Shown piece after piece: positions 4,683 through 58,013 of a stretch of 64,000 nucleotides of DNA (within the stretch, counting starts at the first letter, position 1; each line of letters starts with the position of its first letter). This DNA comes from Shigella phage vB_SdyM_006. A program made the translations under genes and the position numbers. The notes under the pieces were generated by a model that worked only from the letters and a program-made list of their open reading frames with translations, was not told the DNA's origin and made no database searches. The stretch lies in the sequence record MK295204; one strand, 5' to 3'.

Positions 4683-5018
4683 TTATACCTCAAACAATCG
4701 TATTTTAAGACTAGTTGTATATTTGATTTCTAAATTATAAACTTTACCACTATAAACAACAAGAATTTTATTTGGGTTTTCTTCACACCACATTATATTA
4801 TCGTCATTAATAATGTTTAAAAATTCTAGCTCTGAATAACAAGCCCACGAGAATGATTTACTTAAAAACTCTTTTAAATCAAGCCAATCGGTTTCGTCAC
4901 AAATAGCAGGACTCATAACAGCAAGTTTGTGGGTATATGTTTCTTTATCACACCAACGAGTAAAAAACACTTCACGTTTTTCTTCTAAAGGAATAACACC
5001 AGCAGTATACCAAGACAT
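4683..5018 (-). CDS. hypothetical protein (111 aa)
   Basis: ORF; C-terminus resembles that of the next ORF. Confidence 0.5.
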   Translation of the reverse strand: MSWYTAGVIPLEEKREVFFTRWCDKETYTHKLAVMSPAICDETDWLDLKEFLSKSFSWACYSELEFLNIINDDNIMWCEENPNKILVVYSGKVYNLEIKYTTSLKIRLFEV

Positions 5019-5027
5019 AATAATTCC

Positions 5028-5312
5028 TTATTTGATTGGGATGATTCTAAATTTGTATTCACCGCCACGAGTAAATTTAACTTCTAACTGAGTTGATTCA
5101 CCAATGTAAAGAACCAAAATTGAATTTTTATTAGAACGTAACCAGTCTTGATATTCTTCAAAAGACTTGCGTAAAGATGGGATGCTATTTTTATATCGGC
5201 CTAAAATAGTCCATGAGAATTCACCACTGCCCATCCATTTAGTGGAACGGTCATATTTTAAAAGGTTTTCAATATCAATATTTAACCATGTTTTAAAGTT
5301 TTCTTTAATCAT
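5028..5312 (-). CDS. hypothetical protein (94 aa)
   Basis: ORF; C-terminal pattern ILVLYIGE..LEVKF resembles ILVVYSGK..LEIKY of 4683..5018. Confidence 0.5.
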   Translation of the reverse strand: MIKENFKTWLNIDIENLLKYDRSTKWMGSGEFSWTILGRYKNSIPSLRKSFEEYQDWLRSNKNSILVLYIGESTQLEVKFTRGGEYKFRIIPIK

Positions 5313-5500
5313 TTTCTTACCTTCATTCGTTTACGATAAACTACTTTTTCGCGAGTTTTAAATTCCTTCTGTTTTTGTTCAACTTCAATATAAACAGAAG
5401 CCATTTCTTTAGCTGTTCCACCCATTTTTCTGGCTATATCAACAAAGTGCATACCTTGTTGTTTAAGAAAGTGGATTTTTATTTTATCATGATTTGTCAT
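5309..5500 (-). CDS. small basic protein, possible helix-turn-helix
   Basis: Track ORF starts at TTG (5512); first ATG at 5500; Lys/Arg-rich C-terminus. Confidence 0.4.
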   Translation of the reverse strand: MTNHDKIKIHFLKQQGMHFVDIARKMGGTAKEMASVYIEVEQKQKEFKTREKVVYRKRMKVRK

Positions 5501-5660
5501 TATTTTCTTCAAAATCTTTACAGATATCCAAGAGTTTTTTGTTTAAAGCTTCAACAAATTCTGTAGCTGAATCAGGGTATTCGTTAAATAAATAACACAA
5601 ATACTCACTATGTATTTCATGGGCCACTTGAGAAACCATAGTCTTAAGTTCTTTATTCAT
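5487..5660 (-). CDS. hypothetical protein (57 aa from ATG with GAGG RBS)
   Basis: Track ORF extends to 5693 overlapping the macro gene; internal ATG at 5660 has RBS and removes the overlap. Confidence 0.4.
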   Translation of the reverse strand: MNKELKTMVSQVAHEIHSEYLCYLFNEYPDSATEFVEALNKKLLDICKDFEENNDKS

Positions 5661-5664
5661 ATAA

Positions 5665-6099
5665 TCACCTCTCAATAATGTGTATTCTATCATCTAAAAT
5701 ATCATTAAGCATAGGACCAATGACATCCCAATTTAAGCCACCATTAGAACACCCTGGTTTAGGCAGGAGAACTCTTTTAAAATTGTTATTAGATACTATC
5801 TCCATTAATTCTAATGCACTCTTACGTATCAGGTCTTTATCAGACTTGTTATACCAATCATGTTTAGTAGGAAATGATATTAAATTAATGTTATTATATT
5901 TCGTAAGAATTCTGCATACATGGCCGTATTGGATTAAGGATTTAGCCATGATTAAGTCTAAATTAGGAACCTTCAACGAAAAGAGACGGGCAATTCCGGC
6001 TCCCATAACAGCTCTTTTATTTTTCTTGATATTCATGTTTGTTGTAATGCAAATAGCATCACAAGGGATATCAAGAATATTTCCAGATACTATTTTCAT
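5665..6099 (-). CDS. macro-domain protein (ADP-ribose binding/hydrolase fold)
   Basis: 144 aa; N-terminal SGNILDIPCDAICITTN, glycine loop VMGAGIA, C-terminal PKPGCSNGG fit minimal macro domain. Confidence 0.75.
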   Translation of the reverse strand: MKIVSGNILDIPCDAICITTNMNIKKNKRAVMGAGIARLFSLKVPNLDLIMAKSLIQYGHVCRILTKYNNINLISFPTKHDWYNKSDKDLIRKSALELMEIVSNNNFKRVLLPKPGCSNGGLNWDVIGPMLNDILDDRIHIIER

Positions 6100-6518
6100 A
6101 AAGCTTCTTTTAAAACTTCTATAGCATGCTTAATTTCAAAAGGGATACCTTCTGATGGATGCTGGCGAATGTTATCGTCAATATGACTAAAATCCATGCC
6201 AATTACACGGACTTTATATTTTTGCTCACTATCAAATTCTGATATATTAGAACCCCAAGTGTTTGATGATGTAACTTCTTTAGTCTCAAAATAAGTACAT
6301 CCACAATGACAATATTCGTGCCAAAAATCACAGTCTTTATCAAATAAAGGGTGGTCTTCGCGAAGAGTTAAATATACCGCATAACTCCAATCCGGACGAC
6401 CATCATTAAATAAAGCTTTATAACTAGGTGGTAATCCTGTAAACCATGAAGTAACTTCAATAGCTTCGCCTTTCTTTTTATCTGCATGAACAGTGTATAC
6501 ATATTTTTGAATAGACAT
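6096..6518 (-). CDS. Cys/His-rich protein coupled to macro-domain gene
   Basis: Stop overlaps macro start (ATGA); contains CDFWHEYCHCGC cluster; no family recognised. Confidence 0.55.
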   Translation of the reverse strand: MSIQKYVYTVHADKKKGEAIEVTSWFTGLPPSYKALFNDGRPDWSYAVYLTLREDHPLFDKDCDFWHEYCHCGCTYFETKEVTSSNTWGSNISEFDSEQKYKVRVIGMDFSHIDDNIRQHPSEGIPFEIKHAIEVLKEAL

Positions 6519-6716
6519 TTATTTTACCTCAATAATAGTGAGTTCAGTATCTTCTGTCAAATCACAAAAGTCAAAAGCCAATGCAGCAATACCTGGGTAT
6601 TCTGATTCGTCAATAATACATTCAGTATTATTATTTTTGATGTCTAAGGCTAATTGATAATTAGACGTAGTAAATCCAAGTTCAAGTTCTTCGCACCATA
6701 CGGTATACTTTTTCAT
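6519..6716 (-). CDS. small protein, tandem paralog A (65 aa)
   Basis: Begins MKKYTVWCEE, ends TIIEVK; paralog of adjacent gene. Confidence 0.55.
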   Translation of the reverse strand: MKKYTVWCEELELGFTTSNYQLALDIKNNNTECIIDESEYPGIAALAFDFCDLTEDTELTIIEVK

Positions 6717-6911
6717 TTATTTTACCTCAATGAGTTCACAATCGTATAAACAACTACACAGTTCACAAAAAGAATAAGCCGATGCATATGAATCAGTGTC
6801 TATCCAAAACCCAAGATTATCAATAGCACCTTTACGAACTTCATAAGCAAGTTGATAATCAACTGTTTCAAATCCAATTTTCTTTTCTTCGCACCATACT
6901 ATATATTTCAT
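6717..6911 (-). CDS. small protein, tandem paralog B (64 aa)
   Basis: Begins MKYIVWCEE, ends ELIEVK; abuts paralog A. Confidence 0.55.
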   Translation of the reverse strand: MKYIVWCEEKKIGFETVDYQLAYEVRKGAIDNLGFWIDTDSYASAYSFCELCSCLYDCELIEVK

Positions 6912-7756
6912 GAGTATTCCTTGTCATAATAAGAATCTGGAGTAAAAATATTTAACATATTTGTAGAATTATCAATAGTAATAATATTTTCCTGTTCAAC
7001 TTCAGGTGTATAATATTTTAAAAACTCTTCTTTAACGTATTTTACTGGATCACTTTTATAATCGTCAGTAGAAATATCAAATAATTCAATTGTATACGTA
7101 TCAAGCCATTTTTCAGAACATGTTAATCGTCCACATAATAATCCATCATAAACGATAGCATATTCAATATGGCCCCATTTATATGAGCTATCAGCGTCGT
7201 GTCTGATTAGATAAAACTTAATATCAGAATTCTCACAATCATCACTAATATTGTCACGAACATCGTATTCATTGAGCTCGGTCAATTCACTTAAAGCATT
7301 AATAAACAGGTTTTTATATTGAGGGCCAGTTACTAACTTATCTTCTGTTAGTTCTTTCTCAATAAATTCTTTTAAAGTTAAAACTGGCAATTCATACTTA
7401 GGAAATAATGCAGTTTCAGTAATAGTGCCGATATTCAATTCGGCCAATTTCTTAATAACAGAATCTTCAGCTTTATCAGAATCAGTCCAAATATGAAGAA
7501 CTTTAAAATTATGATTATTCCAAATTTTTTGTGGGTCAACATCAATCACATCTTGGGTTTTAGACAAAAACATTAAAAGGTAATCAGAATCATTCCACCC
7601 TACTGGGTTTTCGTATTTTTGAATGACTAGATATTGGAAATCAGTCATTAATGCATTATATCTTTCTTTAGAAGCTAAAGAAGTAGAATCCATAGATGAA
7701 GAAAAAGCTTCAATAACACTAGCTGGGTTTTTAATTAACATTTTGAATAGTCCCAT
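6908..7756 (-). CDS. hypothetical protein (282 aa)
   Basis: ORF with ATG; ATGA overlap with downstream gene. Confidence 0.55.
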   Translation of the reverse strand: MGLFKMLIKNPASVIEAFSSSMDSTSLASKERYNALMTDFQYLVIQKYENPVGWNDSDYLLMFLSKTQDVIDVDPQKIWNNHNFKVLHIWTDSDKAEDSVIKKLAELNIGTITETALFPKYELPVLTLKEFIEKELTEDKLVTGPQYKNLFINALSELTELNEYDVRDNISDDCENSDIKFYLIRHDADSSYKWGHIEYAIVYDGLLCGRLTCSEKWLDTYTIELFDISTDDYKSDPVKYVKEEFLKYYTPEVEQENIITIDNSTNMLNIFTPDSYYDKEYS

Positions 7757-7977
7757 GTGATTTTAACACGATCATGATATATTACTCTATCATGGCTTTT
7801 TGAAACTGTAAATCCTTTTTCTTTAAGAATTTCAATCAACGCATCTTTAATGGCTTCATTTTCTGGAAGCTTTGCGTAATGCTCTGTACTATCATGCAAA
7901 GCCAGTTGGCAAATATCATTTAACACAATAGCTAAATTGTGTTCAACAACAGTATTTTTAAGATCAGATAAATTCAT
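7735..7977 (-). CDS. hypothetical protein (80 aa), first gene of leftward accessory operon
   Basis: ORF with ATG; candidate GTTTAC promoter upstream. Confidence 0.5.
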   Translation of the reverse strand: MNLSDLKNTVVEHNLAIVLNDICQLALHDSTEHYAKLPENEAIKDALIEILKEKGFTVSKSHDRVIYHDRVKITWDYSKC

Positions 7978-20281: not shown

Positions 20282-22345
20282 TTAAATAATAAATTTTTCT
20301 GGGACAAAAGTAAGATCAACAGCTGTTGATAATAATTCTAGCCCTTTTTGACTAATTTTACCAGTATTTTCTTTTAAGAATTCTTTAAACCCAATTTTTT
20401 CGATTTTTCCTTCAGATAAAAACTTATTTCCGTCAATAAGTTCGCTTTCATCTAGTAATTCTGGATCCACTACAGATGTTTCTACTAATATTGGTCTATT
20501 AAATTCTATATCACGAGCGTTTTCATAACCGTGGATAGAATGAATCTTAAGAGCTAAACCTCTAGGTAAAATCACCTCGCATTCACTAGAGTATTTTGAC
20601 ATATTACCAGGAATAATAACATTGACTTTATGTGCACCTTTAATAGTTATACCCATAGAAATGTTAATATCTGTTTTCTTAGTTGCTTTCTTACCATTAA
20701 CGGCTACACCAATATTTTTTGGTGTCATAACTGTTGATATAACATCATCGAATGTTTCGGATTCAAAAGTTACTGTAGTCGCGTTAGGTTTAATATTATC
20801 AAGAACATCATTTCGTTCCCCAAAAATAATTGGAGCTAATGAAGTCGAAATATAATTAGGAAAATATAATGTTTTATTTTTAGCAGCTTTTTCTACGTCG
20901 GCATAAGGTAATTTTTGTGCTCTATATAAAATAGTTCCTTTTTCTAACTTGGTTCCTTTTTTGAAGGCCCCATCTAAGACAGGAATTTTGTTTTCATACA
21001 CAGATTTTAAACTTTTATCTTTACCAAGCAAAAAGTCGTTCATTTCTTCATATCCACGTAAAGCATAATCTGTGATAACTTTTCGCTCTTCTTCTGTTAA
21101 ATCCATTTCTGTTTCGGTTCTAAATAACTCTTCTAAAGGAGTATAGAAAACATTTCTGTTTAAAGCAGAGATACAGCCTCTTAAAGCTCTAGTCTTAGCC
21201 ACATTATCGTCAGGTCCATATGTTTCTAAATCTTCGGCTATTTTTTTGTAAACATCCATAGCATTATTAGAAGTTTTGAGCGCATTGTTAATTATCAATA
21301 TATACGGTTTTGCTAATTTATATTTTTCTTCACTAGATAAATGATAAAAATTTTCAACACCATACCCAGATATGCGTTCTAAAGAATCTAATAAAAATCT
21401 AGCTTCTAGATCTGATTCTTCTTCACTCACGGCCGAATTTATTTTATCTAAAAACACAGATTTAGATTCATCAATTTTATTAAGGACATTTTTATGAACT
21501 AATGCAATTTTTGTAGAATCACTTTGGACAATAGGAGGATTATCTTGTAGTTCAATATATTTTCTTCTTCCTTCTTCAGAATAATTTTCTAAGTCTTCTG
21601 GTTTAGAAACACCATACATTGCTGATAATAATTCACGTCTAGAAACTTTAGTTTTTGAAATGACAGATCGTTCACTTCTTGTGTTTTCTTGTGCTGCAAT
21701 ACTTCCTGCAATGGCTTCTAATTTAGACACTTGCTTGCCAGTTTTGTCATTGATATACACATCACCTACTTTAGAATCGACTTTAGTATATAAGTCAGAA
21801 TCAATACCAGGAATCCCAGCGATGTCTTCTAAAGGTCTGTTTTTACGATATATTAAAACATAAGCATGTTTACCTGTAAATTGATACAAATCTTCTAAGA
21901 CAACAAATTTACCACCAGTACGTTGCATAGCCAGACGTTTGATTATTCTTTGTAATGTCTTTTCTTGGCCTTTCATTTTTTTAGCAGGGAATCTAAATAA
22001 AACTGCGTCCATTTTAAGTTTTTTAACTTGTTCGTATACAGTGTCAAAAATAGTATTCAATGCCCCAATAGGGTCTGAGCCTAAACCATTTCTTAATTCT
22101 GCTGCATTACCATTTTTAGACAAACTCATCAAAAACACTTGAACAAATTTATCACCTTGCTTTACTGCTTTTAATGCATCGCCTTTAGATAAATAAGACA
22201 CCATTCTAACTAAAAGATTGTCATTTCCAGGAACACTGACATTCCATAATTGAGGGACCTTAGCCCTTTTATTAAGATTAATAGCTTTATATTGAGCTAT
22301 TTCTGAATCAAAAACCTCATTTAAATTAATTTCATTTAATTCCAT
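20282..22345 (-). CDS. alt: ADP-ribosyltransferase Alt
   Basis: 687 aa (T4 Alt 682 aa); R-S-E type motifs YRAQ, YISTS, ECEVILPRG; late promoter upstream. Confidence 0.85.
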   Translation of the reverse strand: MELNEINLNEVFDSEIAQYKAINLNKRAKVPQLWNVSVPGNDNLLVRMVSYLSKGDALKAVKQGDKFVQVFLMSLSKNGNAAELRNGLGSDPIGALNTIFDTVYEQVKKLKMDAVLFRFPAKKMKGQEKTLQRIIKRLAMQRTGGKFVVLEDLYQFTGKHAYVLIYRKNRPLEDIAGIPGIDSDLYTKVDSKVGDVYINDKTGKQVSKLEAIAGSIAAQENTRSERSVISKTKVSRRELLSAMYGVSKPEDLENYSEEGRRKYIELQDNPPIVQSDSTKIALVHKNVLNKIDESKSVFLDKINSAVSEEESDLEARFLLDSLERISGYGVENFYHLSSEEKYKLAKPYILIINNALKTSNNAMDVYKKIAEDLETYGPDDNVAKTRALRGCISALNRNVFYTPLEELFRTETEMDLTEEERKVITDYALRGYEEMNDFLLGKDKSLKSVYENKIPVLDGAFKKGTKLEKGTILYRAQKLPYADVEKAAKNKTLYFPNYISTSLAPIIFGERNDVLDNIKPNATTVTFESETFDDVISTVMTPKNIGVAVNGKKATKKTDINISMGITIKGAHKVNVIIPGNMSKYSSECEVILPRGLALKIHSIHGYENARDIEFNRPILVETSVVDPELLDESELIDGNKFLSEGKIEKIGFKEFLKENTGKISQKGLELLSTAVDLTFVPEKFII

Positions 22346-26200: not shown

Positions 26201-26521
26201 TTAGGACCTTATTTTTAAGATTGTTTTCATTGCAGCAACTAATGGTTTTTTATCCTCAACCCAGTCATCACAACATAAATTTTCATTATCGAAATTATTG
26301 TATCTAGAACCTAGACAATGTAAACCGATAAATGTATCATTTGATGTTTTTGTTACACTGATATCATGGTCTAACATTAAGACCCAAGCTTGATTAATAT
26401 TATTACATGGATCAAATTTTAAGCCATTAATATAAACAAATAACTTAAACCCTTGGTTTTCTACTGTGTATTCATACCCAAGACTTTTAGCTAGTTCAAT
26501 ATTAATATCAAGTTCAGTCAT
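26201..26521 (-). CDS. hypothetical protein (106 aa)
   Basis: ORF. Confidence 0.5.
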   Translation of the reverse strand: MTELDINIELAKSLGYEYTVENQGFKLFVYINGLKFDPCNNINQAWVLMLDHDISVTKTSNDTFIGLHCLGSRYNNFDNENLCCDDWVEDKKPLVAAMKTILKIRS

Positions 26522-26955
26522 AACCGTCTCCTTAAAGATGTCAATATACCACAGAATTCTTGGTTTGTTAATATAGTTTCGAACTTATTTTCGCATCCTA
26601 TAGTATGAACTAATGTTTTATCGCCTGTTGCTCTCAGAGCATCTCTGAATGATTTATTCTGATTAAACATATGAATATATGCTCTGACTAGTAAACGTTT
26701 GTAGGCTTCACTGTGACGATTAATAGGGCATCCATTATACCACATAGTGTCATTTTTCATTTTAGGACCAGCTAATTTGGCCTTTAATCCATGCAGTTTA
26801 AACACTTCAGATTGTTCTTTAGGGTCTTTAATTTTTAATCCTTGTAAAAATCCTTCTATACTGCCAAAGAGCTGATTGTCCATTTTAAAAGGATGCTCAG
26901 CAAAATTACTTAAAGCACATGAAGGCCAAGGGCCTCTAGAATGAATATCAATCAT
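26518..26955 (-). CDS. NADAR (YbiA-like) domain protein
   Basis: LSNF..PF, S.E.F.Q..K and MFNQN..FRDALRATGDKTLVH align with E. coli YbiA motifs FSNF..P, TSEHYFQAQKF and KFEQH..LRALLLATAPAKLVEH. Confidence 0.7.
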   Translation of the reverse strand: MIDIHSRGPWPSCALSNFAEHPFKMDNQLFGSIEGFLQGLKIKDPKEQSEVFKLHGLKAKLAGPKMKNDTMWYNGCPINRHSEAYKRLLVRAYIHMFNQNKSFRDALRATGDKTLVHTIGCENKFETILTNQEFCGILTSLRRRL

Positions 26956-28122: not shown

Positions 28123-28451
28123 TAAACCAACCTTAAAATGTCTTCATACTTCATAGAATTAACAGAAATAATTGATTCTGTTGTAATAGAACGCCATGCA
28201 TTAATCTCTGTATCAAATACTCGGATATATGATGGTGTTTTTGTTTCTTTTTCTGTTAAAGGTTTAGAACTATCTTGTTTAGGATGATGTTCTTCAGGAA
28301 TAATATCATAATCTAGTGTACAGCGAATAACTCTAATAGAACCATCTTTTTTAGTAAAAACAATTTCATTTTTACCATTATGTAGTAAGGTTTTAATTAA
28401 AGCAGTTAATTTAGCTTTTCTTTCTTCTGTAAGTTTCATTTTACACCACAA
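28122..28451 (-). CDS. hypothetical protein (109 aa)
   Basis: ORF between cd and gene 31. Confidence 0.45.
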   Translation of the reverse strand: MWCKMKLTEERKAKLTALIKTLLHNGKNEIVFTKKDGSIRVIRCTLDYDIIPEEHHPKQDSSKPLTEKETKTPSYIRVFDTEINAWRSITTESIISVNSMKYEDILRLV

Positions 28452-28987
28452 TAGTTAGTTATAGTAGACCAATCAATATGATTGAGATTAGAACGCTCAT
28501 ATTTAATAACTTCAATTCCAGAATCTAATAAAATCTGGTCCCATCCAGGAACATTGCGATCATATGTTTCTGCATAAACAAGTTTTTTAATACCAGATTG
28601 AGCAATCGCTTTAGCACAATCAGGACATGGCGATAATGTTACATACATTGTTCCGCCATCAATAGAAATACCATTACGAGCAGCAAAAATAATTGCATTT
28701 AATTCTGCATGGATTTCATGTTTAGAAGACCATGCATTATGTTGCTCACGGAATTCCATATTTAATCCTGTAATAGTTTTAGGACGAGGACCTGGAACAA
28801 TAATAGGTTTAGTCCAACCTTTTTCTGCTGCATGGTCGCAGCAATTGACGCCACCAGTAGGAGAACCATTATAACCAGTAGAAATGATTCTTCCACCTTT
28901 TTCAATAACAGCACCAACTTTCCAAGAAACACATTTAGATTCTTGAGAAATGATATAAGCAAGTTGGAGATATGTCGAAGCTTTCAT
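28436..28987 (-). CDS. cd: dCMP deaminase
   Basis: Zinc-binding deaminase motifs HAELNAI and PCPDCA. Confidence 0.9.
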   Translation of the reverse strand: MKASTYLQLAYIISQESKCVSWKVGAVIEKGGRIISTGYNGSPTGGVNCCDHAAEKGWTKPIIVPGPRPKTITGLNMEFREQHNAWSSKHEIHAELNAIIFAARNGISIDGGTMYVTLSPCPDCAKAIAQSGIKKLVYAETYDRNVPGWDQILLDSGIEVIKYERSNLNHIDWSTITNYCGVK

Positions 28988-29275: not shown

Positions 29276-29614
29276 TTATTCCTTAAGCATATACATATAA
29301 ACTAAATAGGTTGTGTTTCTAGTTTTTACAATAGCTACTCTATCATCTAACATTTTAAAGCTCTTTACAGTAGATGTACTAACATAAGTTTCATCTTTAA
29401 ATCGATTAGAAATATCACTGTAAATAAGTCCAGAAATACCAAATCTGGCTTCTAAATTAACTTCAAGAATATGCTCTAATTTATCAGACATTCGATGTCC
29501 GATAACAGCTAGAATAGCATCGCATGCACAAGCATTTCGAATAGAAGATAATTCAGATTCTTGGTTTTGCCCTATTTTATCTTCAATTGCGTTAATCAAT
29601 TTTTCTGTTTTCAT
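29276..29614 (-). CDS. hypothetical protein (112 aa)
   Basis: ORF directly downstream of DAHP synthase gene. Confidence 0.5.
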   Translation of the reverse strand: MKTEKLINAIEDKIGQNQESELSSIRNACACDAILAVIGHRMSDKLEHILEVNLEARFGISGLIYSDISNRFKDETYVSTSTVKSFKMLDDRVAIVKTRNTTYLVYMYMLKE

Positions 29615-30585
29615 TATAAGTCCACAATTAATTGTGCAGTGTCAAAGATATCAATACAAGGATCTGTAATTGATACACCCCATAAAAGATTATCGGAAAT
29701 CTTTTGATTACCTTCTATTAAATTACTTTCAATCATAAGCCCAAAAGTATTTTTAGCTTTAATTGCTTCTTTAGCTACATTAATTTGGTTTTTAAAATTA
29801 CCTTCACAATTAGCGTGTGAGCAGTCAACCATAACTGGAATCTCTAAAGACTCAATATATTCTTTAGAATAATTAGTTTTATATTCTTTACCGATTTTAC
29901 CACCACGTAAAATAATATGCGTATTTAGATTTCCACTTGCATAGATTTTACTAATCACGCCATCCATATTAATACCTAAATACGAATGTGGAAAAGCTGA
30001 ACTCTTCATAGCATCTAATGCTACTTGAATATCACCTGATGTTGAATTTTTAAATCCAACGGCCATAGGCAGCCCAGAAGCTATTTCACGATGAGTCTGT
30101 GATTCTGTTGTTCTAGCGCCGATAGCAGTCCAACTAAAAATACCAGATAGATACTTAATAGTAAATGGGTCTAAGACCTCTGTCGCCAAAGGAAGCCCAA
30201 GATTCAATAGTTCTATGCATAAGTGACGAGCAATTCTTAACCCTTCATCCATGTTAAACGAACCATTTAATTCAGGGTCATTAACAAGTCCTTTCCAACC
30301 TACGGTTGTACGTGGCTTTTCAAAATAGACCCGCATTACTAAAAGACATTTATCACCAATATGGTTTTGTAATCTTTTTAAATACTGCCCGTAAATGACC
30401 GCTTGTGCTGGGTCATGAATAGAACAAGGCCCAACAACGATCAGTTTTTTAGAACTCACGCCAGAAATAATATCTTTAACTTCTTGGCGATGATTTTCCA
30501 CTTGTTGCTTTAATTCATCAGAAATTGGCAACTCATCATGTAGCTCTTGTGGTGTGCTAATAGTTTTAACGTGCATGGATATCAT
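29614..30585 (-). CDS. DAHP synthase (type I alpha, AroG-like)
   Basis: LIVVGPCSIHD, MRVYFEKPRTTVGWKGLVNDP, IGARTTESQTHREIASGL match E. coli AroG nearly residue for residue; ATG with GAGG RBS. Confidence 0.85.
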   Translation of the reverse strand: MISMHVKTISTPQELHDELPISDELKQQVENHRQEVKDIISGVSSKKLIVVGPCSIHDPAQAVIYGQYLKRLQNHIGDKCLLVMRVYFEKPRTTVGWKGLVNDPELNGSFNMDEGLRIARHLCIELLNLGLPLATEVLDPFTIKYLSGIFSWTAIGARTTESQTHREIASGLPMAVGFKNSTSGDIQVALDAMKSSAFPHSYLGINMDGVISKIYASGNLNTHIILRGGKIGKEYKTNYSKEYIESLEIPVMVDCSHANCEGNFKNQINVAKEAIKAKNTFGLMIESNLIEGNQKISDNLLWGVSITDPCIDIFDTAQLIVDL

Positions 30586-57395: not shown

Positions 57396-57739
57396 TTTTT
57401 AAGTTCCAATTCTTCTTTAGAAAACCAACGAATCATACCGTATTTGTCAACACACGCATAAGATAAACTATCACTATCATCAATCTCGTGAACAGTAAGT
57501 TCTTCGCCAATAGAAACATCAGATTCACAACCTACTAGATTCTTAGTAAATACAACCTTATCACCAACAGAGAATCCTTCATATAGATTCCAGTCTTCTA
57601 GTTTAAATTTACCTTTTAGTCCAGGACTTAATTCAATTTCTAAAGGATAATCACCACCTGAAACACCTACAAGAGTTCCTTTAATATTACCATTTATGAC
57701 AGTAGCACCAATATTGATACCATTACCAACTTTAAACAT
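57392..57739 (-). CDS. hypothetical protein (115 aa)
   Basis: ORF. Confidence 0.45.
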   Translation of the reverse strand: MFKVGNGINIGATVINGNIKGTLVGVSGGDYPLEIELSPGLKGKFKLEDWNLYEGFSVGDKVVFTKNLVGCESDVSIGEELTVHEIDDSDSLSYACVDKYGMIRWFSKEELELKK

Positions 57740-57740
57740 A

Positions 57741-58013
57741 TTAACCTCTATTTAAATGCATTTCAATAATAGAATAAGTCGATTTATGGCCCATATTAAA
57801 TTCTTCAATTAATTGTTTTTTCTCGTCTTCAGTTAATGACTTAATTAAAGACTTTAAGTTACTTCTATTAAATAACTTTCCGTTATTACGAATACCTAAC
57901 TCATTAATGAACGCTATGAAAAGATTTTCATCTTCAATTATATCTTCACTTTCGAATTTGATAAGAATTGAGATAACAGCAAAAATTTCAGATAAAGTTT
58001 CCAATTTGTTCAT
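57741..58013 (-). CDS. asiA: anti-sigma-70 factor AsiA
   Basis: 90 aa, same length as T4 AsiA; SILIKF, DIIE, FIAFINE, LIEEFN match. Confidence 0.85.
   Translation of the reverse strand: MNKLETLSEIFAVISILIKFESEDIIEDENLFIAFINELGIRNNGKLFNRSNLKSLIKSLTEDEKKQLIEEFNMGHKSTYSIIEMHLNRG

Follow-up and report, generated by a model that had tools for sequence, protein, structure and literature searches.

The DNA analysed here, a 64,000-nucleotide (nt) stretch of Shigella phage vB_SdyM_006 (MK295204) that we call the window and to which all unprefixed positions refer, belongs to a T4-type phage of the genus Bragavirus whose relatives, by nucleotide comparison, are Proteus phages. A 2.8 kb segment of the window (5000-7800) is 95.5% identical in nucleotide sequence to phage phiP4-3 and 81-85% identical to phages PM2, SJ_PmiM and Pm5461. 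Between gp24 (head vertex) and gp54 (baseplate tail-tube initiator), small genes follow one another closely on the minus strand, and among them lie two that overlap, one encoding a macrodomain protein of 144 amino acids (aa) and the other, directly upstream, a 140 aa protein that we refer to as the partner. Judging from sequence, structural models and analogy with characterised enzymes, the macrodomain protein is probably an orphan ADP-ribosyl hydrolase that reverses the DNA mark of host DarT2, with the partner acting independently of it. The two genes and their junction are as follows:

5665..6099, minus strand: macro gene, open reading frame (ORF) of 144 aa; stand-alone macrodomain of the DarG/TARG1 clade by sequence and model, AdfM-like
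6096..6518, minus strand: partner gene, ORF of 140 aa; PHROG 20299/2164, no Pfam family, alpha/beta model
6096..6099, minus strand: ATGA overlap of 4 nt between the partner stop and the macro start, junction ...GCT TTA TGA / ATG AAA...

The overlap of the macro ATG with the partner stop codon agrees with the original prediction for this locus. Both ORFs are real genes and not chance ORFs, because their ratios of non-synonymous to synonymous substitution rates (dN/dS) against three Bragavirus relatives are low (macro gene 0.08-0.15, partner gene 0.18-0.22) and each has many homologues. Their G+C content is 0.33-0.34, that of the window 0.31. Start and stop codons overlap or abut at almost every junction of the minus-strand cluster, in the window and in its relatives alike, an overlap of 14 nt in the genus Gualtarvirus included. 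Overlaps are thus generic in this cluster and the ATGA says nothing specific about the pair; termination-reinitiation coupling across it is possible. The ribosome-binding site of the partner gene is a GAGG at 6530-6527 (minus strand). A promoter-like sequence within the upstream gene (TTGACA-17-TATTAT, 6560-6532, minus strand, 11/12 match) was not counted as a feature, because such sequences occur in the region at chance frequency (36 against 32.6) and a transcript from it would start at or after the GAGG.

Family, fold and active site of the macrodomain protein

The 144 aa protein matches the PADLOC model of DarG (1.5e-18), the NCBIfam model antitoxin_DarG (NF048014; 6.2e-18, model positions 2-138 of 338) and phrog_335 (1.6e-25). 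A phmmer search of PDB sequences retrieves DarG of T. aquaticus (TaqDarG, 5m31, 8.8e-7) and of M. tuberculosis (MtbDarG, 5m3i, 1.1e-6), and after the DarG entries Thermosipho DarTG and then, much more weakly, TARG1 (E 0.06). The macro part of the AlphaFold (AF2) model has a predicted local distance difference test (pLDDT) score of ~97, and its best PDB neighbour according to Foldseek is TaqDarG (5M3E; E 7e-10, template modelling (TM) score 0.79), followed by MtbDarG (5M3I), TARG1 and Thermosipho DarTG (7OMU); the best 50 of 108 PDB matches at E<=0.001 are macrodomains, engineered proteins on a related scaffold or unassigned structural-genomics proteins. As DarG tops the sequence matches (PDB phmmer, NCBIfam and PADLOC) and the structure matches, the protein is, by sequence and model, one with a macro fold that is specifically DarG-like and falls in the DarG/TARG1 clade. 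A profile or structure search could have placed it outside the macro fold; instead, the DarG library matches and the Foldseek score bear out the motifs from which the original prediction had called a macrodomain, namely DAICITTN (residues 14-21), MGAGIA (32-37) and PGCSNGG (115-121).

DarG2 (5M31/5M3E, 5M3I), the top sequence and structure match, has the fold in common with the window protein, and likewise the active-site residues, save that the match of the Asn depends on the alignment. K79 in SFPTKHDW, the putative catalytic lysine, aligns with TaqDarG K80 in NFPTKKHW (K84 in TARG1), W82 aligns with TaqDarG W83, and HMMER pairs N21 (ITTN) with TaqDarG N22; these three, together with the PGCSNGG loop, make up the putative active site. 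Mutation of K80 inactivates TaqDarG, mutation of N22 or W83 impairs or abolishes its activity, and W83, for which TARG1 has Ala, has been proposed to stack on thymine (PMC5179494). The Asn of TTN is kept in the macro family consensus, and the protein is basic (pI 9.4).

The C-terminal DarT-binding domain of DarG is missing from the 144 aa protein, whose model match ends at position 138 of 338, and no darT lies near the gene, its immediate neighbours having no DarT or ADP-ribosyltransferase match in Pfam. The macro ORF alone matches the PADLOC DarG model, the partner being without a PADLOC or NCBIfam match and the neighbours being small phage ORFs. With neither the DarT-binding domain nor an adjacent darT, the protein is therefore an orphan antitoxin-like enzyme and not a component of a toxin-antitoxin system; in both respects, and in being encoded by a lytic phage, it differs from DarG2.

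The macro family is found in 173 phage records, including schitoviruses (N4 relatives), PhiKZ-like phages and phages of Vibrio, Aeromonas, Listeria and Bacillus, and is labelled 'phosphatase' in RefSeq and PHROG. Bragavirus has one macro gene genome-wide, as determined by scanning PM2 at 1-100 kb and 140-163 kb plus the window, which stands in for the remaining part of the genome of this close relative. In the GenBank record of phiP4-3 (MG696114), only a 46 aa fragment of the gene is called (coding sequence 57819-57959) and a gap is left. The macro ORF of this phage is intact at 57525-57959 (L001:4664-5098), with 144 aa that are 99.3% identical to those of the window protein, and the gap is therefore an annotation error and not a sign of a pseudogene. 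Antisense to the macro gene is a plus-strand ORF of 148 aa (5678-6124) that we treated as a shadow ORF. Its translation resembles the Gualtarvirus antisense frame (45% over 91 aa), a likeness that is expected as the shadow of a conserved gene and hence is no evidence of a second gene.

Characterised relatives and proposed role

Orphan DarG-like macrodomains are a less novel idea than the original prediction assumed: AdfM enzymes of this kind were published for T4 in 2025 and for PhiKZ in 2026. The present gene is best read as being of the AdfM type, with the modest twist that its macro subfamily and locus differ from those of T4 AdfM and that the genome also encodes an AdfN homologue. PhiKZ gp104 (AdfM) takes DarT2-made ADP-ribose off DNA in vitro and alone rescues DarT2 toxicity (PMC13309987), and deletion of T4 Tk.4 (AdfM), identified by HIDEN-SEQ, makes T4 sensitive to DarTG2 (10.1101/2025.11.20.689424).

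PhiKZ AdfM is, like the window protein, a stand-alone phage macrodomain of ~150 aa with DarG as its best family match; the two are 29% identical (BLASTP, E 2e-16) and have the motifs ITxN, VMGAG, FPTKxxW and PxGCxNGGL in common. The DarG model gives 133 bits for PhiKZ gp104, 65 for the window protein (the equivalog cutoff being 250) and 36 for T4 Tk.4, so that the window protein falls between two validated phage AdfMs. PhiKZ AdfM differs in being much nearer to DarG and in being imported into the phage nucleus, which is absent from T4-like phages, whereas in the window family 6 residues are inserted behind the Asn, and the activity of the window protein is a prediction where that of PhiKZ AdfM is demonstrated. 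T4 Tk.4 (L021:5923-6390) resembles the window protein as a macrodomain of a T4-type phage whose gene belongs to an early accessory cluster and has a 4-nt overlap with the gene upstream, but the two are not orthologues, their similarity being weak and local (48 residues, E 2e-4) and their loci different. The FPTK motif of DarG, PhiKZ AdfM and the window protein is moreover replaced by LYTQ in Tk.4, whose catalytic arrangement may therefore differ. In Bragavirus PM2 (NC_055727; L022:40632-41072), the tk.4 slot between tk and vs is filled by an unrelated 146 aa ORF with no macro signal and no homology to Tk.4.

Human TARG1 (C6orf130/OARD1) belongs to the same macrodomain clade, has the catalytic lysine and also cleaves thymidine-ADP-ribose, but is a weaker match, has Ala in place of the Trp, is eukaryotic and acts mainly on protein glutamate-ADP-ribose. 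Among enzymes tested on synthetic substrates, it is those of the DarG/TARG1 clade that hydrolyse thymidine-ADP-ribose (PMC12879935). A functional analogue of the macrodomain protein is AdfN (T4 gp30.3, NADAR), an anti-DarTG1 guanine-ADP-ribose hydrolase (PMC11825919). It is likewise an orphan antitoxin-like hydrolase that clears DarT-made ADP-ribose from phage DNA, but has an unrelated fold, acts on guanine adducts of DarT1 only and is inactive against DarTG2. The window encodes an AdfN homologue and, as originally predicted, an Alt ADP-ribosyltransferase:

26518..26955, minus strand: homologue of T4 gp30.3 (NADAR, AdfN); Pfam Phage_30_3 1.2e-42, NADAR 9.6e-6
20282-22345, minus strand: Alt-like ADP-ribosyltransferase, 687 aa; PF03496, 1.7e-14

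For the substrate, timing and biological role of the macrodomain protein in Proteus infection, we infer the following. The gene would be expressed from the early-type gp24-gp54 accessory cluster, and the basic macrodomain would bind single-stranded phage DNA in which host DarT2, where present, would have ADP-ribosylated thymidines in TNTC motifs. The adduct would be removed via the DarG/TARG1-type lysine K79 (FPTK), with N21 and W82 assisting, and the phage DNA could then be replicated and packaged. The AdfN homologue (guanine adducts) and the macrodomain (thymine adducts) would cover both DarTG types. The genomic context fits such a role, in that the tk-vs slot is without a Tk.4 homologue, the macro gene is single, an AdfN homologue is present and DarTG is known from Morganella, darT-darG being among the rare toxin-antitoxin families of Morganella morganii genomes (<20% of strains; PMC13227991). 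Among the functions entertained in the original prediction, DarG-like reversal of DNA ADP-ribosylation thus appears the best supported, on sequence, model and analogy, and nothing in the analysis points to degradation of immune signals derived from ADP-ribose (ADPR).

The partner family and neighbouring genes

Searches of Pfam, NCBIfam, PADLOC and PDB sequences gave no match to the partner, whose sole assignment is to PHROG 20299, of unassigned function. Among 1.84 billion cluster representatives (50% identity clusters), a profile search identified 96 relatives (E<=1e-3). Stand-alone proteins of 118-193 aa make up nearly all of these, and two are far longer multi-stretch proteins of 563 and 2,324 aa. 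A tblastn search of isolated phages with distant members led back to the 12 partner-carrying records of Morganellaceae phages, from Bragavirus and Gualtarvirus, and to no others, the wider contexts of the family being taken from metagenomic contigs; a search for related loci with a partner alignment recovered just three T4-like phages, all already known. Conservation was counted over 99 family members:

W/Y46: 99/99
Y49: 98/99
H56: 88/99
H71: 86/99
G73: 98/99
G107: 98/99
D109: 97/99
Y/F110: 96/99
H112: 97/99
D115: 95/99
L136: 97/99

The description of the partner as Cys/His-rich in the original prediction holds for the protein itself, which has CDFWHEYCHCGC at residues 63-74, but not as a conserved zinc cluster, these positions being poorly kept across the family (C70 in 5/99, C72 in 21/99, C74 in 52/99 and H67 in 8/99 members) and C63 varying already among the closest relatives. 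A classical zinc finger or Cys-His zinc cluster was rejected on the grounds that the ligand Cys are mostly lineage-specific. Homology to T4 Vs or Vs.1 was also rejected (hhalign probability 0.1%); T4 Vs overlaps tk.4, as the partner overlaps the macro gene.

The AlphaFold model of the partner (pLDDT 90; predicted template modelling score, pTM, 0.83) consists of a five-stranded sheet and three helices, with the conserved His and Asp in loops after strands 3 and 5 and before strand 4. The fold has no close match in PDB and a BFVD search gives family members only; the nearest folds, none of them close, are those of type III secretion chaperones, YbjN-like alpha-beta proteins and the C-terminal domain of T4 MotA. 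The protein is acidic (pI 5.3, net charge -8; family median pI 5.2). Sequence and model lead us to suggest, with low confidence, a small protein that may bind a metal or ligand via its His/Asp site and act through macromolecule binding. One distant member of the family lies directly after genes for RNA ligase 1 and a polynucleotide kinase (PNK)-like AAA_33/Zeta-toxin kinase (L013:2094-5399), and in the window RNA ligase 2 is ~1.4 kb away from the partner; the family may be loosely tied to RNA-repair genes.

Directly upstream of the partner are tandem paralogues of 65 and 64 aa (6519-6716 and 6717-6911, minus strand), both phrog_21221, which occur in one or two copies among the relatives. The 282 aa ORF that follows (6908-7756, minus strand) has counterparts in phiP4-3 and in Gualtarvirus (30% identity); PM2 and SJ_PmiM are without it and have a gene of ~78 aa in its place, the region being an indel hot spot. 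Beyond the macro gene, the ORFs at 4683-5018 (111 aa, phrog_18468) and 5028-5312 (94 aa, phrog_19888), both on the minus strand, cross-match each other's profiles at their C-termini and appear to be tandem diverged paralogues, of which a T4-like contig, L007, has a single 112 aa version. Elsewhere in the window are a DAHP/KDO8P-synthase family gene (29614-30585, minus strand; PF00793, 6e-67) and a dCMP deaminase gene (28436-28987, minus strand), to which the PM2 annotation adds chorismate mutase and phosphoheptose isomerase; metabolic genes of this sort are unusual in a T4-like phage.

Alternative explanations and implications

Several observations weigh against a DarT2-directed DNA hydrolase encoded beside an independent partner. 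The Pfam Macro score of the macrodomain protein is borderline (21.5 bits against a gathering cutoff of 22), and TaqDarG G119 is replaced by Ser. MAFFT pairs N28 instead of N21 with TaqDarG N22, an ambiguity that arises because the 6-residue family insertion lies right after the putative catalytic Asn. TARG1, of the same clade, also removes protein Glu-ADP-ribose, and the substrate is therefore unreadable from sequence alone; for the Morganella darT-darG loci type 1 or 2 was not given, and Proteus was outside the survey (PMC13227991). As regards the partner, the pair is still adjacent and overlapping across two genera at 46-54% protein identity, and the AlphaFold test of a complex, made on a partner-linker-macro fusion with six paired and 75 unpaired alignment rows, is a weak one because of the six paired rows and because it gave no predicted aligned error (PAE) and was not a true multimer model.

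The original prediction treated the two genes as a macro module and their products as a possible complex. Under such a scheme the partner would replace in trans the C-terminal domain of DarG or the role of AdfA/AdfB, binding or blocking DarT or targeting the macrodomain. The genes do adjoin and overlap in 12/12 phage records that carry the partner, and retention of the pair across Bragavirus and Gualtarvirus is compatible with a lineage-specific functional link; an acidic partner stands beside a basic macrodomain, the nearest folds to the partner include protein-binding type III secretion chaperones and YbjN-like proteins, AdfB sets a precedent as a small DarT-binding inhibitor, and T4 AdfN appears to need a further, unidentified T-even factor. 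However, the 12 records form one syntenic lineage and thus amount to a single observation, and elsewhere the partner family is widespread without a macro gene. None was found with our own macro hidden Markov model within the flanks examined at 6/6 independent partner loci, which lie in an early region with S-adenosylmethionine (SAM) lyase, primase-helicase and family-A DNA polymerase, in a temperate phage near Rad52, beside YqaJ, directly after Rnl1 and a PNK-like kinase, and in two other contexts, with no neighbour gene common to the loci outside the lineage. The most telling of the six is contig L007, which, although syntenic with the window (Rnl2 67% identical, with the DUF2774 gene and the 94/111 aa paralogue in common), has a partner homologue followed directly by DUF2774, with no macro gene and no 68 aa gene. 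Macro relatives, for their part, stand without the partner at 4/4 independent loci, among them those of the two relatives closest to the window outside Morganellaceae. The phage database has 173 macro records against 12 for the partner, PhiKZ AdfM works alone, and the partner evolves ~2.5 times faster than the macro gene. The fused model (pTM 0.54) has each domain at pLDDT >90 but no confident mutual placement or interface. Neither family needs the other in general, and we regard a real module as quite unlikely. We consider it highly improbable that the partner is a new counter-defence class, with a chaperone-like scaffold of the type III secretion system (T3SS) kind and a His/Asp site for a metal or ligand, that was recruited beside the macro gene in T4-like phages of Morganellaceae and forms a split antitoxin in which the macrodomain would erase thymine ADP-ribosylation and the partner would bind DarT2 or sequester an ADPR-related ligand. 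Sequence and models instead point to the partner as an independent accessory gene whose adjacency to the macro gene is confined to T4-like phages of Morganellaceae and which would not be needed for macrodomain function.

A second group of alternatives concerns the substrate. A macrodomain directed at ADP-ribosylated protein or RNA, bearing either host toxin marks or the phage's own Alt/Mod-type modifications, is suggested by the protein Glu-ADP-ribose hydrolase activity of TARG1, by the Alt-like gene 14 kb from the macro gene and by the versatility of macro domains across substrates. This seems to us unlikely, given that DarG outranks TARG1 in sequence (E ~1e-6 against 0.06) and structure, that the putative thymine-stacking Trp of DarG, Ala in TARG1, is kept, and that both phage homologues tested to date counter DarTG2. 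T4 Alt, moreover, modifies arginine, and we know of no report of arginine-ADP-ribose cleavage by DarG/TARG1-type enzymes. Very unlikely, in our estimate, is a role in handling small metabolites such as ADP-ribose-1''-phosphate from RNA repair, O-acetyl-ADP-ribose or ADPR-derived immune signals. The 'phosphatase' label that would favour it is inherited annotation and not a test, and a comparative survey in which soluble ADP-ribose derivatives were argued to be the main targets of phage macro domains is to be set against the closest characterised relatives, which are DNA ADP-ribose hydrolases. Rnl2 is indeed in the same cluster, 1 kb downstream of the macro gene, but contig L007 keeps Rnl2 and its neighbours without a macro gene, so that the latter is not tied to RNA-repair genes. 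To our knowledge, no macrodomain has been demonstrated to degrade the Thoeris glycocyclic ADP-ribose (gcADPR) signal.

The macro family, at present annotated as 'phosphatase' or not at all, and mis-called in phiP4-3, could be given a more informative annotation on the basis of these results. With ~100 cluster representatives, a confidently predicted fold and a site of conserved His and Asp residues, the partner family is a clearly delimited part of phage dark matter. If the macrodomain protein is indeed a DarT2-directed DNA ADP-ribosyl hydrolase, this would bear on which phages of Proteus, Morganella and Providencia are chosen for therapy against strains that carry DarTG. Bragavirus would then hold both known enzymatic answers to DarTG, NADAR for guanine and a macrodomain for thymine adducts, and T4-like phages would have gained anti-DarT2 macrodomains more than once, the present one being of the DarG-proper type and at a locus other than that of Tk.4.

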